IMG/VR virus record: IMGVR_UViG_3300012933_000298
Location: 1 to 26,231 of that record
Source of the DNA: a virus
Taxonomy: Duplodnaviria; Caudoviricetes
Length of the DNA stretch: 26,231 nucleotides
Direction: 5' to 3' (one strand)
A model generated the notes under the pieces. The model was not told the DNA's origin. It did no database searches and saw only the letters and a list, made by a program, of their open reading frames with translations. Positions 2,881 through 21,477 of this stretch are shown here, piece by piece (positions within the stretch are counted from its first letter, which is position 1; each line of letters begins with the position of its first letter). The translations under genes were made by a program, and so were the position numbers.

Positions 2881-2935
2881 AATGTAGCACAGTTACACAG
2901 CAAGATTGACAGAATGAATAAAGAAATGCTAAATT
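2881..2935. promoter_or_regulatory. Divergent promoters in an AT-rich spacer
   Basis: Minus strand: TGCTACATT (2889-2881) before the methyltransferase. Plus strand: TTGACA (2906-2911), 18 nt, then TAAATT (2930-2935) with an extended TG. Confidence 0.6.
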
Positions 2936-2963
2936 AGACTTAGGAAATCGAAATTAGCCTAAT

Positions 2964-3000
2964 AAACACCCCCTGAAACCTAAGTAAGGGGGTTTTTATT
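2964..3000. terminator. Probably bidirectional intrinsic terminator after the HNH gene
   Basis: ACCCCCT (2968-2974) / AGGGGGT (2987-2993) stem, 12-nt loop, T-rich on both sides. Confidence 0.7.
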
Positions 3001-3947: not shown

Positions 3948-4491
3948 AAGCCTTGATCCTTTCTAGGATTTCGCCTGGCACTCTAGCCGCGACCGCTTGA
4001 CTGTATAGTTTGCGGAGGTCATCCACCGCATAAGTCAATGCTAACTGTTCAGCCTCGCCAGCCCAATCTCTGGTCGCTTCATAGCTGAAAGAGTCAGGGT
4101 CAGGTTCATCGGTTGGCAGGGCGAGAACTTGAAGCAAGAAGGTGCGAAGAGCCACAGACATTGCCTTAGCGGTTGCCTTGTCACCCGAGTCGAAAGCCTC
4201 AGCAGAAACCGAGCCAACAATCGGGTCACCATCCAGCCCATAAATACCGAACTGCACAATCAGGTGAACCACATTGACAGTCGAACCCTTAGCAGTGAGG
4301 GCGGTTGAATGGTTTGCCTCTTTGATTTCTGGCAGGATAAAACCGCCAGCCGATCGCAGAGCAGGGCCAACCTTGTTGACCACAGCATCAATGCCTCGGA
4401 AGTTGAAGCCCTGAGCAGAGTTGCGGTCGCGCTTTGCAACCCCCTGCACCGACTCCATGACAGCCAGAATGACCTCGCGAGCATTAGCCAT
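3877..4491 (-). CDS. ERF-family single-strand annealing protein
   Basis: GFNFRGIDAV...EAFDSGDKATAKAMSVALRTFLLQVLALPTDEPDPD motif; downstream of the exonuclease. Confidence 0.88.
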   Translation of the reverse strand: MANAREVILAVMESVQGVAKRDRNSAQGFNFRGIDAVVNKVGPALRSAGGFILPEIKEANHSTALTAKGSTVNVVHLIVQFGIYGLDGDPIVGSVSAEAFDSGDKATAKAMSVALRTFLLQVLALPTDEPDPDSFSYEATRDWAGEAEQLALTYAVDDLRKLYSQAVAARVPGEILERIKAYGNAAGGQSDSVGIAQGTKGIAQ

Positions 4492-4682
4492 TAGTTCGCA
4501 CCCTTCTCAATGACAGCCTCATCCGAATAGATAGTGGCTGACAGTCCAGCAATCTGAATCCAGAAGACATCAGGCTTGTCGCGGACATCACCGACAGCGG
4601 TAACAACACCCTGGACACCAGTGATGCCATAGCGAGCGGTGTGGATTGACACAAAGACCAAATCCCCTAGCAGAATATTCAT
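4491..4682 (-). CDS. Hypothetical protein, 63 aa, small beta-barrel-like
   Basis: SD GAAAGGGAAA, and start/stop overlaps with both neighbours. Confidence 0.7.
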   Translation of the reverse strand: MNILLGDLVFVSIHTARYGITGVQGVVTAVGDVRDKPDVFWIQIAGLSATIYSDEAVIEKGAN

Positions 4683-5590
4683 TTGTTTCCCTTTCCCTTT
4701 TCAACTGTGACATAGGGCGCACCTGCGCCGCGCTGTTGCCTCTTAGCAACAACAAACTTCTCGCCATCCACCTCAATGAAAGCAGTCCTAGCCTTGCCCA
4801 TCTGATCAAGAGTTCGGCTCTTGAGTTCGGTCAGGGTGACTGTCAGCTCATCAATCTGTGTAGCGATGTTCACTAAATCTATACCAAGCAACTCGGCAAT
4901 TTCAACTTCACTGCCATCAATCTCAGGGTTCACCTTGCGCTGGGCTTCGAGAGTAGAGGTCGCACCATCAAACTCTGGTGGGCGCAACTCAAGCACTCGG
5001 CGGTGGAAATCCTCGACCTTCTCGCTGATATAGTCAGCCTCGAACTGGTCAAAGACAATCGGAAACTCCATATAACTAGAGCCAGCAAGCGCGGCGATAA
5101 AGCCCTGCTTGAAGCCAGTGACATTGAAGTAGTGAAAGACCTGCGCGCGGTAGCCAATAGGTGGCTCACCGCCCCAGTAGTCGCGACTGAACTTGATTTC
5201 GACAATGCCCCACTCGCCTGTGTCGCGGTGCTTGTAAACCGCATCCATGTTGGCATGAAGGTAAGGCTTGCTTGCGCTGGCATAAGTGCCGACAGTAAAC
5301 ACCTCAAGCTCTGGGTGTTCCTCAGCAAAGATTTCCAAGATAGGTGACTCGAGTTTTGTTCCCAAGCGCATAGACATAGAAGGCTCAACCTTGTCATCTA
5401 TCTGGCCTGTTGCCTTATAGTAGCGAGCCAGTGGGCTTTCCCAAGGCGAGAAGCCACAGATAGCTGCCACCTGTGAGCCGCCGATTGCGCCTGGCTGGTT
5501 GCGAAGTTCATGCCAACCGGCTGATCCATTCTCAAAATCGCCAAGCAGGACAGCATCCCCGAGGGTCTGAGCAGTTAGGTGTTCAATCAT
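4679..5590 (-). CDS. YqaJ / lambda-exonuclease-like recombination nuclease
   Basis: WHELR...IGGSQVAAICG.SPW...GTKLE...ANMD...VEIK...YRAQV motifs. ATG 5590 follows SD GAAAGGGG. Confidence 0.9.
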   Translation of the reverse strand: MIEHLTAQTLGDAVLLGDFENGSAGWHELRNQPGAIGGSQVAAICGFSPWESPLARYYKATGQIDDKVEPSMSMRLGTKLESPILEIFAEEHPELEVFTVGTYASASKPYLHANMDAVYKHRDTGEWGIVEIKFSRDYWGGEPPIGYRAQVFHYFNVTGFKQGFIAALAGSSYMEFPIVFDQFEADYISEKVEDFHRRVLELRPPEFDGATSTLEAQRKVNPEIDGSEVEIAELLGIDLVNIATQIDELTVTLTELKSRTLDQMGKARTAFIEVDGEKFVVAKRQQRGAGAPYVTVEKGKGNK

Positions 5591-5667
5591 TAGTTCCCCT
5601 TTCACTCATAGGCTAAGGGATGCCTCGGACATTTGGCAAATAGCCAGAAAGAAACTAACCTGAAGTA

Positions 5668-6288: not shown

Positions 6289-6801
6289 TTATTCCTTACA
6301 GGCGCAGGTCGCGCAGTGCTTGACTGAGGCAGGGGTGACAGTTGTCGCATCCGCTTGGGCAGGTGCTTTTTTTTCGGCAGCAATCATCTTCACTAGGAAG
6401 GTGTGAGGGTCATAGACCTTGCCCGAGATTCCACCGCCGCTAGTTAGCGAGAGAGTGAAGTGCAGGTGGACACCTGAAGAGGCTGAACCTGAAGTGCCAG
6501 CGCCACCGACCGACTGACCAGACTTGACCGCTGTGCCAACCTTCAGCGGTGACTGCTTGTCCATGTGGCAGTAAATGAAGAACCACTTGCCAACCTGAAT
6601 CTCAACAACCCAGCCAAGGACATCCGACCACTTGTTTAGGGTGACCTTGCCATCGCCCACAGCCTTCAGCGGTGTGCCAGCTTTGAAGCCATTGTAATCA
6701 CAGCCTCGGTGTGGCCCTAGACCCATAGCCTTGCGCTGAGGCGAGTGCGACCCGAAAGGGTCAGCAACCTTCGGAAATGGTAAGCGCCAGTTGTAAGTCA
6801 T
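6289..6801 (-). CDS. Endolysin, M23 peptidase
   Basis: HRGCD, YCH and HLH zinc motifs; short tail ending CATCAC. Confidence 0.88.
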   Translation of the reverse strand: MTYNWRLPFPKVADPFGSHSPQRKAMGLGPHRGCDYNGFKAGTPLKAVGDGKVTLNKWSDVLGWVVEIQVGKWFFIYCHMDKQSPLKVGTAVKSGQSVGGAGTSGSASSGVHLHFTLSLTSGGGISGKVYDPHTFLVKMIAAEKKAPAQADATTVTPASVKHCATCACKE

Positions 6802-6825
6802 ACCCCTATTCTACCAATCAGCCTG

Positions 6826-8620: not shown

Positions 8621-8669
8621 CAGCAATCTTTCTGGGGGTCAGGTTGCGTAGGCCTTTGGAACTATTTTA

Positions 8670-14449: not shown

Positions 14450-15081
14450 TAAATGCCTTTCGAGTTGATGCGAGTGAAAGCATCGCGCAAAATCTTTTCG
14501 ATGGCTTCGCGAGCTGCAGGAATTGACTTCTCAGCGGCTGGCCATATAAAGCGAGAAGCCGAGCCACCAATCTTTTCTTCAATACCGCGGAACTGACCAT
14601 TGACCTTGTGACGGCGAGTGCCACCCTTGTAAGAATATTCCCGAGTGTAACCCGAACCCTTGTAACCGGCATTGCGGTAGCGACCCGAGCGCCCACCCAT
14701 GTCGGCAAGAGTAACTGCAGGGTTGCCGACCTTGACTCGCACAAGGCTAGTGGTGTTAGAGCGACCCGACTCCGAGGTGCGGAACTGAGGCTTGACATCC
14801 ATTAGCTTGTGAGAGCGACCCTTAGCATCAATGGCATTGTTCCAGTTCAGGCGCGCACCTGGTCGAAGCATACCGCTGTTAGGGGTTACCGAACCGATGG
14901 CACTTTTCACCGCGCTGACAGTCGGGGCAGCAACCGCTTTGGCATCTCGCAGTAGCTGAGTGCGAAGCATCGGATCAATCTCTTTGAGTCGGCGCTGAAG
15001 GTTGCGCACATCGGTGACAGATAGGTTGCTCGCCTGACTACTCCCGAAGGTAGCGATTTGGAATTGCAGCAGACTGGCCAT
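14449..15081 (-). CDS. Basic tail-completion (HK97 gp10-like) protein
   Basis: Arg/Lys-rich with a C-terminal RFIWPAAE motif; leaderless start. Confidence 0.6.
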   Translation of the reverse strand: MASLLQFQIATFGSSQASNLSVTDVRNLQRRLKEIDPMLRTQLLRDAKAVAAPTVSAVKSAIGSVTPNSGMLRPGARLNWNNAIDAKGRSHKLMDVKPQFRTSESGRSNTTSLVRVKVGNPAVTLADMGGRSGRYRNAGYKGSGYTREYSYKGGTRRHKVNGQFRGIEEKIGGSASRFIWPAAEKSIPAAREAIEKILRDAFTRINSKGI

Positions 15082-15098
15082 GCTTCTATTCTACCGCT
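15077..15098 (-). repeat. Leaderless promoter repeat, copy 1 (AGCGGTAGAATAGAAGCATGGC)
   Basis: 21/22 identical to 17607-17628; TAGAAT -10 lies 6 nt before the ATG. Confidence 0.75.
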
Positions 15099-15149: not shown

Positions 15150-15191
15150 TTCTTTATCAGCACCACAAACTGAAAACAAAGGGAGAACAAA

Positions 15192-15754: not shown

Positions 15755-16150
15755 AGCCTCTGGGCAGGTTACGGCTAACCAAGTATCTGCCCATTGTCCA
15801 AAGCATCCGCTCACTCTCCTGCATAAGCACTTGAGGGGCGATGCCTGTTTCACAAGCAAGGCTGGCGATAAACCAATGAGCAGAACTATCGCCAAGCCCG
15901 ACTATTTTGGGGAAGACTCAGGCCCTACCGAAGCGACATCCGCCAACCAAGCATCGAACTCTTTGCTGGTCAGTTTCTGTCGGCTCAGAGAAGTCCAGGC
16001 AAGCCAGACTAGGTGAGTGAACTTCATTTCAGACTCGAGCTTAGTAACACTCAAGTTGAACTTGTCCTCGAAAGCAACAAGATCAGGGGCGGTCGCAGAA
16101 ACTTCCTGCGACTCACCAGACACAAACTCAATGCGCAGGTTAATCTTCAT
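15753..16150 (-). CDS. Tail assembly chaperone, long form (gpGT) via programmed -1 frameshift
   Basis: Slippery C CCA AAA (15911-15905) just before the TAG. The -1 frame reads IVGLGDSSAHWFIASLACETGIAPQVLMQESERMLWTMGRYLVSRNLPRG and stops at the terminator. Confidence 0.8.
15902..16150 (-). CDS. Tail assembly chaperone, short form (gpG)
   Basis: 82 aa directly after the major tail gene, ending at the slippery site. Confidence 0.82.
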   Translation of the reverse strand: MKINLRIEFVSGESQEVSATAPDLVAFEDKFNLSVTKLESEMKFTHLVWLAWTSLSRQKLTSKEFDAWLADVASVGPESSPK

Positions 16151-17009: not shown

Positions 17010-17611
17010 TAGGCAAACTTCACAATCTTGTATGGGTCAACCAACTGGGCAACATCTGGGTCTAGCTTTGAGCCGACTCGCATGAAGCCGAGGTCTGGGC
17101 TGGATAAGACACCAAGCGGTGAGTCTAGGCGCTTGAAGATTCGGCTTGCCTGAATGATACAGGCTTGCTTGATGGCGATAGGGATGGCAGCCCAACCCCA
17201 AACACCAGTGACCTTGACTAAGCCCTCGCCATTTAGGAAAGGGAAGGTGTAGTCCTGGATTGCTCGCAGACCATTGTAAGGAACAGCCAACCCATCAACT
17301 CGGCCATTCAAAGGCAGAAGCTCATAATCGGTGGTTGCCCAAATGGTGTCATAAGAACCATCTGCTGAGAAGTCGGTGGCAACTTCGGTGATGCTGGTCG
17401 CATCATCAATCTGGCAAACAAAGTCATTGTCGGCTGCGAAGTAGCGAGCGGTCGCTGATCCTTGGGTGTAGAAAGAGCGCGCGGTGTAAGCATCTAGAAG
17501 GCGGCTGGCGGATTCAATAGCCATCTCAAGCAGTGAGTCATCAATGGTGTCAGTGATGCGCAGGGCAGCCTTTACCTCTGCAAGGGTTGAGTAACCATTT
17601 GTAATCGCCAT
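17009..17611 (-). CDS. Head-tail connector (gp6/gp15-like adaptor)
   Basis: YSTLAEVKAALRI.D..DD.LL...IESASR..D...R and WGW.AIP..IKQAC motifs. Confidence 0.82.
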   Translation of the reverse strand: MAITNGYSTLAEVKAALRITDTIDDSLLEMAIESASRLLDAYTARSFYTQGSATARYFAADNDFVCQIDDATSITEVATDFSADGSYDTIWATTDYELLPLNGRVDGLAVPYNGLRAIQDYTFPFLNGEGLVKVTGVWGWAAIPIAIKQACIIQASRIFKRLDSPLGVLSSPDLGFMRVGSKLDPDVAQLVDPYKIVKFA

Positions 17612-17628
17612 GCTTCTATTCTATCGCT
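17607..17628 (-). repeat. Leaderless promoter repeat, copy 2 (AGCGATAGAATAGAAGCATGGC)
   Basis: Matches 15077-15098; its TAG is also the stop codon of the upstream gene. Confidence 0.75.
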
Positions 17629-19883: not shown

Positions 19884-19924
19884 TTATTCCCTTTCATCCC
19901 TTACACTCTAGCAAAGTATCAGGG

Positions 19925-19967
19925 TAAGAGGAAACCCCCCGATGCCTACGCACACCGAGGGGCTTCC
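19925..19967 (-). terminator. Intrinsic terminator after the major capsid gene
   Basis: Minus-strand GGAAGCCCC...GGGGTTTCC stem with G-U pairs, followed by TCTT. Confidence 0.7.
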
Positions 19968-21178: not shown

Positions 21179-21220
21179 GCCGAGGAACTCTGAACAGACA
21201 CAGGCCGAGGAACTCAGAAC
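21179..21220 (-). repeat. Tandem 17-nt repeat in the capsid mRNA leader
   Basis: GCCGAGGAACTCTGAAC (21179-21195) and GCCGAGGAACTCAGAAC (21204-21220); TAGAAT -10 at 21234-21229. Confidence 0.85.
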
Positions 21221-21261
21221 CTAGTTATATTCTACAAGGTTGCTACACAGTCGCTTAAGGT

Positions 21262-21303
21262 AAAGGAAAACCCCCCGAGCGAAAGGGAAAAACTCTCGGG
21301 GGG
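21262..21303 (-). terminator. Intrinsic terminator between the protease operon and capsid
   Basis: CCCCCCGAG / CTCGGGGGG 9-bp stem, 15-nt loop, followed by TTTTCCTTT on the minus strand. Confidence 0.8.
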
Positions 21304-21321
21304 CGAACTCGCAAATAGGGG

Positions 21322-21477
21322 TTAGCGAGTTTCCTTCACAGCAGTAATGCGCACTTCTTTGGGCGCACTGCTGGAGTTTAGTAGGTCAATCAGTTCCTTG
21401 ACAGCGCCCACTTCTGGATCGCCAGCAACTTCCTTGATGACTTCGATTGCGGTTTTGATATCTGCTGGGGTAGCCAT
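21322..21477 (-). CDS. Small protein, 51 aa (MATPADIKTAIEVIKEVAGDPEVGAVKELIDLLNSSSAPKEVRITAVKETR)
   Basis: Manual translation. TAATG coupling to the protease stop; ends before the terminator. Confidence 0.75.
   Translation of the reverse strand: MATPADIKTAIEVIKEVAGDPEVGAVKELIDLLNSSSAPKEVRITAVKETR

Follow-up and report, generated by a model that had tools for sequence, protein, structure and literature searches.

Genome and locus

The window analyzed in the current study, i.e. the whole stretch of 26,231 bases, is a complete viral record of a siphophage-like virus with nearly all genes on the minus strand. The structural part runs from terminase, portal, protease and capsid through two glycosyltransferases and the tail genes to an M23-like peptidase, past which lie genes for a RecE-like exonuclease, Erf, HNH, a methyltransferase and RusA. 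The DNA methyltransferase (1649–2855) is covered by two overlapping frames of 190 and about 290 aa, both of which match methyltransferase families. A WhiB gene is found on the plus strand, and the nearest record in the phage collection was Pontimonas phage phiPsal1 (capsid 45.5%), together suggesting an actinobacterial host. In the published account phiPsal1 appears as a 2% contig that was later gone from the culture (PMC6106888). No relatives of the phage were detected among 185,579 bacterial and archaeal genomes. Two freshwater metatranscriptomes, present as contigs only, contained 8% of the words of the window, mostly from relatives.

The packaging operon ends in a conserved 51-aa ORF, and shortly past its stop codon lies a hairpin with the sequence features of an intrinsic terminator, namely a G+C-rich stem (arms 21271–21279 and 21295–21303 in plus-strand numbering) and a U-rich tail (table 1). 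The terminator hairpin with its 15-nt loop, as given in a preliminary description of this DNA, was recovered on the minus strand with stem, loop and U tail. Its fold was predicted at −21.4 kcal/mol, with z-scores against shuffled sequences of −2.7 on the minus and −1.5 on the plus strand. In a 226-nt context, 13 of the 15 loop bases were predicted to be unpaired with a probability of at least 0.95; according to the prediction, an inner G-C pair may close an 11-nt loop within the hairpin. A search of the whole window against Rfam 15 (E up to 5) returned three unrelated weak matches below the gathering threshold and none at the hairpins.

Neither PHROG nor Pfam contained a family matching the 51-aa ORF. 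An extended −10-like motif about 100 nt before this ORF, a possible promoter of a discrete small RNA, is present in just 8 of 38 genomes, where it falls on conserved Lys-Leu codons, and a conserved internal promoter is therefore not supported. Two more small hairpins were noticed at 21308–21380 (minus strand), one spanning the stop codon of the ORF and one within it, and both also occur in several relatives with paired changes. The capsid leader (21179–21220, minus strand) contains a 17-nt motif twice, which relatives keep, with paired changes in it (e.g. GAG..CTC, GCG..CGC, GTG..CAC); these repeats are possibly tandem protein-binding hairpins. A −10-like box also recurs 6–8 nt before an ATG at 6797–6818, 15077–15098 and 17607–17628, where leaderless late transcripts are predicted from the motif.

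Table 1. Features of the hairpins and of the sites predicted to pair with their loops (window coordinates).
Feature	Position	Strand	Basis or details
Terminator-like hairpin behind packaging operon, 9-bp stem and 15-nt loop	21271–21303	−	sequence, fold, conserved in relatives
C/U-rich loop, antisense to GAAAGGG-type RBSs	21280–21294	−	sequence, pairing, statistics
U-rich tail of hairpin, 7 U in 9 nt	21262–21270	−	sequence
51-aa ORF, conserved, last gene of packaging operon	21322–21477	−	39 members in 42 genomes
Predicted −10 box of separate capsid promoter, downstream of hairpin	21229–21235	−	motif and distance kept in relatives
Predicted target: DNA methyltransferase RBS (ATG 2855)	2860–2871	−	12-nt complement, −17.3 kcal/mol
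Predicted target: RBS of 63-aa gene after exonuclease	4686–4695	−	10 nt, −14.8 kcal/mol
Predicted target: RBS of 38-aa gene before putative SSB	882–891	−	10 nt, −14.6 kcal/mol
Predicted target: RBS of RecE-like exonuclease, first early gene	5593–5604	−	7 nt exact, 10 with one G-U, −14.2 kcal/mol
Predicted target: GT4 glycosyltransferase RBS	19887–19895	−	9 nt, −13.9 kcal/mol
Predicted weaker target: RBS of inserted 173-aa gene	15178–15184	+	7 nt, −11.9 kcal/mol
Second terminator-like hairpin, behind capsid; 8-nt loop 19945–19952	19930–19967	−	loop conserved, stem changes
Predicted target of second loop: codons 4–7 of putative tail assembly chaperone	16132–16139	−	8 bp with one G-U
Predicted target of second loop: 25–32 nt upstream of 75-aa gene	8645–8652	−	exact 8-nt complement

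Conservation of the packaging-operon hairpin

Capsid searches yielded several hundred relative loci. An alignment of 45 sequences (MAFFT and RNAalifold) misaligned the 5' stem arm and gave an unusable consensus; hairpins with a stem of at least 8 bp and a U tail were instead counted, anchored at the stop codon with which the small ORF upstream of the capsid gene ends, in 212 loci representing 132 distinct regions. Such a hairpin was present in 117 of these regions, and the 15 regions without one include the nine loci nearest to phiPsal1 as well as some that were recovered by a looser scan. Positions 5–10 of the 49 distinct stems showed five pair types each, a pairing that is partly by construction because stems were picked as hairpins. 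The 53 distinct loops consisted of 85% pyrimidine and contained CUUU or CCUU in 46 cases, and the loop core was kept on changing stems down to about 52% capsid identity.

The hairpin lies 8–27 nt from the stop codon of the ORF and 104–516 nt from the capsid start (128 regions), the latter distance exceeding 200 nt in 11 of the 128 regions owing to insertions. This fixed position near the stop codon, at a variable distance from the capsid gene, indicates that the hairpin belongs to the 3' end of the upstream mRNA, while the conserved −10-like box and leader that follow it suggest that the capsid gene probably has its own promoter. The packaging-operon hairpin is a real, conserved and uncatalogued element.

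Other structures were observed around the same place. In phiPsal1 (L116, 5569–5650) a short tmRNA-like element precedes the capsid promoter (Rfam RF00023, 54.6 bits), and loci L003, L163, L360 and L377 carry similar-looking structured inserts with CCA-like ends between hairpin and promoter; three of these inserts were tested and gave no Rfam match at the gathering threshold, and neither a tRNA nor a tmRNA was detected by ARAGORN in 10 loci. Extra terminator-like hairpins with large C/U-rich loops were seen in G004 (about +15.4 kb from the capsid gene), G013 (+18.8 kb), G008 and G011 (+1.25 kb) and phiPsal1 (+15.9 kb), and these are possible further antisense loops.

Complementarity of the loop to ribosome-binding sites

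The longest complements to the loop among 37 start windows measured 12, 10, 10, 9, 7, 7 and 7 nt, and the four longest are those already named in the preliminary description. Coding-strand complements of at least 8 nt numbered five, at four places, and all were located 3–9 nt before an ATG; four were found on the opposite strand, none of which precedes an ATG, with a TTG lying 14 nt from one of them. Shuffled loops reached four start-window matches of at least 9 nt with P 0.00075. When the CCCUUUC core was fixed and the flanks were randomized, P was 0.010 for total extension and 0.009 for the 12-nt match (37 start windows in each case), and the RBS matches of the loop exceed what the core alone explains (P about 0.01).

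Predicted duplexes ranged from −13.9 to −17.3 kcal/mol at the matched targets, compared to −3.3 to −8.9 kcal/mol at the starts of the packaging operon itself; those at the Erf (−10.7) and capsid (−6.2) genes were weaker. Structural genes had been expected to escape the loop through other Shine-Dalgarno sequences. This applied to 14 late starts (−3.3 to −9.4 kcal/mol), but not to a 163-aa tail-region gene (start 9937), whose GGG-type site is predicted to form a bulged duplex of −14.1 kcal/mol, about that of the exonuclease (−14.2). The idea that the loop is the Shine-Dalgarno remnant of a lost plus-strand gene fails, since no start codon follows it in the window; a frame of at least 30 codons was present behind the loop core in 5 of 76 distinct hairpins, and none in the other 71.

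Early-gene bias in relatives

The comparison covered 40 relative records and phiPsal1, with genes called by our own script, which found 44 of the 54 phiPsal1 genes and placed 36 starts as annotated. Starts were scored and compared using an assumed host anti-Shine-Dalgarno sequence. Seventeen genomes have a U-rich CCCUUU loop; in these, matches of at least 7 nt were present at 75 of 300 early versus 4 of 354 late genes and matches of at least 8 nt at 45 versus 0, and with one genome per clade the 7-nt matches stood at 46 of 175 versus 4 of 229; these are counts from related genomes, not independent trials. The bias toward early genes holds across relatives. Complements of at least 8 nt preceded a start codon in 62 of 75 cases on the coding strand (background 31%) and in 6 of 29 on the other.

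The type of binding site showed a corresponding bias. Ratios of AAGGG to AAGGA/AGGAG sites in the 17 CCCUUU-loop genomes were 97:29 for early and 16:93 for late genes. The early ratio was 30:44 in 10 genomes with a long C run in the loop and 13:23 in 4 genomes whose loop lacks CCC. In phiPsal1, which has no hairpin at the corresponding place, the same GGG/GGA bias was found (early 6:4, late 1:5).

Co-variation of loop and binding sites

Co-variation was analyzed in 33 of the 36 loop-bearing genomes (three under 22 kb were left out), grouped into 17 capsid clades from a quick version of the capsid tree. Loops fitted the start windows of their own genome better than permuted loops did (median p 0.001 for 7 nt and 0.0045 for 8 nt; range 0.001–0.005 over the 17 clades). 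Control windows shifted by −60 and +90 gave p 0.28 and 0.85 for 7 nt, and 0.024 and 0.22 for 8 nt, the −60 window being weakly positive at 8 nt. Permutations within clades were not significant (p 0.19 in 11 genomes, p 0.18 in 6 genomes), 13 of the 33 genomes (about 40%) had no 8-nt start-window match to their own loop, and the own loop was the best among 24 loops in just 5 of the 33. Co-variation of the loop with start regions is thus partial, seen across clades but not within them.

At individual sites, the base after AAGGG was A in 51 of 72 cases with a loop that predicts A, and U in 26 of 39 with one that predicts U; this represents about three independent events, as five of the seven U-type genomes form one clade and G013 splits 2/2/2. 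In several relatives the exonuclease RBS changes with the loop: GGGUA accompanies a loop with UACCC, and in G024 GGGUUAG one with CUAACCC. G015 has GGGAGU in the exonuclease RBS and ACUCCC in the loop, both unlike its five clade-mates, the exonucleases of which are 68–72% identical. In G009 and G028, loops without CCC occur together with exonuclease RBSs without GGG after the A run. A CUC loop (L188) is matched by two GAG-type RBSs, and a five-U loop by a five-A RBS in three similar loci. In the held-out loci L367, L368 and L382 the five-U side matches over 9 nt, and the base after GGG is A where the loop predicted U. Taken together, the clade-level permutation, the changes in exonuclease RBSs and the A/U base argue against a loop that varies independently of the Shine-Dalgarno sequences.

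The divergent loops of G009/L044 and of L184 had no targets at RBSs, and the G028 loop also matched nothing. In the clade of G009, L044, L061, L074 and L371, in which the loop has lost CCC and matches no RBS, the early RBSs are mostly of the GGA type; the loop is here complementary over 8 nt to the late −10 box predicted in these genomes, of which G009 has two copies.

A second hairpin behind the capsid gene

The loop of a second terminator-like hairpin, located behind the capsid gene, measures 8–11 nt across relatives and is kept on a changing stem. One of its predicted targets is a gene of about 83 aa after the tail tube gene, termed the putative tail assembly chaperone from its position only. 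A set of 164 loci gave 67 distinct pairs of loop and gene after short loops had been restored, and 64 after removal of three with a wrong start. The loop can pair over at least 7 bp with codons 3–7 of the putative chaperone gene in 52 of the 64 pairs, and the co-variation was significant with p 0.0003 (41 clades) and p at most 0.0017 (13 clades).

Both sides were found to change together, UGCGUAGG occurring with CCUACGCA and CGCGUAGA with UCUACGCG, and also where the swap changes the protein, from Arg to Gln (UGUAGGUU with AACCUACA) and from Asn to Asp (UGUAGGUC with GACCUACG). The Leu codon at the site is CTA in 55 of 58 cases, versus 21.7% genome-wide. Deviations from the site kept a G-U pair in 19 of 20 that were of transition type; 21 more were of transversion type. 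According to PMC7534054, sRNAs can block initiation within a window of five codons, and the present site falls at its edge.

By genome, the second loop matched the putative chaperone gene in 29 of 38 and a site 25–36 nt before the 68–75-aa gene in 17 of 38; the family of this gene (75 aa, near 8645 in the window) ends in a hydrophobic stretch. The GT4 start is also often matched, the site often lying 40–70 nt downstream of the hairpin, inside the coding region in leaderless versions. The pattern does not extend to the phiPsal1 clade, nor to one clade of the chaperone in which the site is missing. The sequence data for this loop are the strongest evidence that the phage family pairs terminator loops with start regions, and its co-variation is far clearer than that of the packaging-operon loop.

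The hairpin near 2975

The preliminary description had proposed an early-to-late switch for the packaging-operon loop and, adding the loops near 19944 and 2975, a regulatory network of terminator loops. The network idea is strongly supported by the loop near 19944, which finds a partner in the putative chaperone start (52 of 64 pairs), but the targets of this loop are late genes, so that it is no early-to-late switch. The hairpin at 2969–2992 is oriented to the plus strand, as judged by its U tail, and follows a strong promoter match on that strand (2906–2935); promoter and hairpin (2906–2996, plus strand) would give an RNA of about 55 nt. Read on the minus strand, its loop had no RBS-placed complement of at least 7 nt in the window; read on the plus strand, it had one match, in early coding sequence (2509). 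Its membership of the proposed network is not supported, and it looks like a separate small plus-strand RNA.

In G029 (L322, about 4391–4539) the promoter and a 2975-type loop are kept on a stem with compensated changes. Seven nucleotides near the 5' end of the RNA (2938–2944) are complementary to its own loop in the window, though not in G029, and a possible pseudoknot could be formed from this pairing.

Proposed function and alternatives

Comparison of the sequences establishes that the hairpin exists and is conserved past the 51-aa ORF, that its loop is complementary to RBSs with a bias toward early genes, and that the two partly co-vary, from which pairing of the 21271-type loop with RBSs is probable. 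Since the loop is complementary to early RBSs and tends to change with them, the tail of this mRNA likely damps translation elsewhere. We moderately favor the interpretation that the terminator loop of the packaging mRNA is an antisense repressor acting in trans on mostly early, GGG-type RBSs. The hairpin would terminate the packaging-operon mRNA, the capsid gene being served by its own downstream promoter, and the loop would act either as part of the intact mRNA, at its 3' end, or after processing, as part of a 3' fragment. By pairing over Shine-Dalgarno sequence and spacer it would block 30S loading, and early translation would be damped once packaging transcripts accumulate late in infection. 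Structural genes would escape because of AAGGA/AGGAG sites, overlapping starts or leaderless mRNAs. The post-capsid loop probably acts in the same way on the putative tail chaperone, GT4 and the small late gene, limiting low-copy products as capsid mRNA rises.

Pairing could also be real without being a brake on early genes, acting in cis on read-through transcripts (e.g. at the GT4 start) or through decay, stabilization or activation. The short distance between the second loop and its GT4 site, which lies in the coding region in leaderless versions, would suit such an outcome, and the recurrent site 25–36 nt upstream of a start (17 of 38 genomes) could serve activation as well. Most targets of the 21271 loop, however, lie 14–20 kb downstream, past further terminator-like hairpins, and cover the Shine-Dalgarno sequence itself, while the starts of its own operon are unmatched (−3.3 to −8.9 kcal/mol) and 4 of 354 late genes match. 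On the whole we regard such an outcome as unlikely.

According to another explanation, host mRNAs are the main target and the loop serves as an anti-Shine-Dalgarno decoy in host shut-off, early genes being host-like and late genes having evolved away. The CUUUC core is indeed kept where the genome's own early RBSs match poorly (G016–G025, G037, G040), but phage-specific RBS flanks track the loop, and the phage-gene targets of the second loop have no likeness to a Shine-Dalgarno sequence, which makes a decoy rather improbable.

Still less probable is coincidence, with strong AAGGAG sites on highly expressed late genes, weaker GGG sites on early genes and a pyrimidine-rich loop whose likeness to the 16S tail arose by drift or from a leftover RBS of a lost gene on the opposite strand. 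The bias in RBS type in phiPsal1, the loops of G009, G028 and L184 that match nothing and the small number of independent co-variation events would be expected under it. It is contradicted by the loop core, kept on changing stems to about 52% capsid identity and with no reading frame behind it in 71 of 76 hairpins, by the co-variation at clade level, and by the second loop, which points to the use of loop pairing in this phage family.

We give least credence to a DNA site for a phage regulator, i.e. an activator site of the capsid promoter with operator-like sites at early genes and an incidental hairpin: in most genomes a few helical turns separate the loop from the capsid promoter predicted downstream, and a shared protein specificity would likewise make sites co-vary, but insertions part hairpin from promoter in 11 of 128 regions with the hairpin remaining at the stop codon, the motif coincides exactly with the loop and is oriented opposite to the target sites, and deviations at the second-loop site favor G-U pairs.

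Terminator loops are usually treated as inert, and here two of them in one phage family appear to co-evolve with start regions kilobases away, one tracking its target through amino-acid-changing swaps. If the antisense repressor proposed here is functional, mRNA ends would regulate other mRNAs as the phage develops, and each gene would be addressed for control by the variant of its Shine-Dalgarno sequence. A wider reading, which we put forward tentatively and hold to be possible rather than likely, is a post-transcriptional program of these lytic phages without a dedicated regulator gene, in which every major late mRNA carries an antisense guide in its terminator loop. The packaging loop would shut early genes via a private RBS code, the capsid loop would meter chaperone, glycosyltransferase and small late protein against capsid output, and the same principle may also explain the SAS of Cluster K phages.

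Relation to known systems

An exposed C/U-rich loop complementary to the initiation regions of its targets, as found here, is known from several sRNAs. In the description of RepG of Helicobacter pylori (PMC8295292), the terminator loop is rich in C and U and binds, in trans, a run of G in the target leader, much as proposed for the phage loop; RepG is a dedicated intergenic sRNA with one G-repeat target, whereas the phage loop ends a structural operon and matches RBSs of several genes. LhrC of Listeria is reported to cover the Shine-Dalgarno sequence with a C-rich loop and to block initiation, with three redundant sites, and RNAIII, RsaE, SprD and FsrA are named beside it as sRNAs with UCCC loops (PMC4132741). 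OxyS pairs through its terminator loop with the fhlA mRNA, as described in PMC11979758. LhrC and OxyS place a C-rich motif of a terminator or hairpin loop over a Shine-Dalgarno sequence, as proposed for the 21271 loop, but they are host sRNAs with their own promoters and share no sequence family with it (no Rfam match).

The 3'-UTR of the icaR mRNA of Staphylococcus aureus contains, as reported in PMC3868564, an anti-Shine-Dalgarno motif that pairs with its own RBS. Both motifs lie in the 3' part of a protein-coding mRNA, but the phage loop points to other transcription units, and its energies at own-operon starts (−3.3 to −8.9 kcal/mol) and matches at 4 of 354 late genes differ from the cis pairing of icaR. 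The c4 antisense RNA of phages P1 and P7 is a processed small RNA in a temperate-phage immunity circuit, the loops of which pair with phage start regions in trans. It is likewise phage-encoded, and pairing in trans with start regions is also predicted for the present loop; no Rfam match, including C4, was found in the window.

The SAS has been described in Cluster K mycobacteriophages and Cluster EF Microbacterium phages, with its partner unknown in the accounts given there (PMC3203893, PMC7302621, PMC11373665), and its role was still called ill-defined in 2024 (PMC11373665). Like the GGG-type sites, it is a phage-specific type of RBS, conserved past the 16S-pairing core, on non-structural genes, and the loop-matching RBSs of the relatives are also mainly those of non-structural genes. 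The SAS is defined as a near-invariant 13-bp motif in at least 10 copies; the window has five minus-strand GAAAGGG sites with variable flanks, and the motif of this phage differs from the SAS in its length (7–12 nt), variable flanks and copy number (4–10) and in having an identified complementary loop. For RBS motifs peculiar to phages, such as the SAS, a complementary loop is a specific candidate partner open to experiment, and Cluster K phages can be grown on a laboratory host. The literature searched, mostly outside subscription journals, described neither the present hairpins nor any anti-SAS loop.

Pope 2011 mentions a single SAS copy in reverse orientation in K1 phages. In Anaya (NC_042031.1, 59870–59882) and likewise in Angelica (HM152764.1, 58634–58646), this copy was seen to lie between genes as the loop of a long hairpin, where it is antisense to the core of the SAS, and from the sequence such a loop is a candidate regulator of the SAS in cultured phages. 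The hairpin region was found in 135 phage records. The observation covers Anaya, Angelica and loci L350, L351 and L353–L356; among seven genomes with a matching region inspected, the anti-SAS loop was present in four, variant in one and absent in two. SgtBeansprout and Shaobing retain it on changed stems, Ekdilam has a variant of it, and SirPhilip and Chris lack it. In ZoeJ, the reverse SAS copy precedes a leftward start codon.
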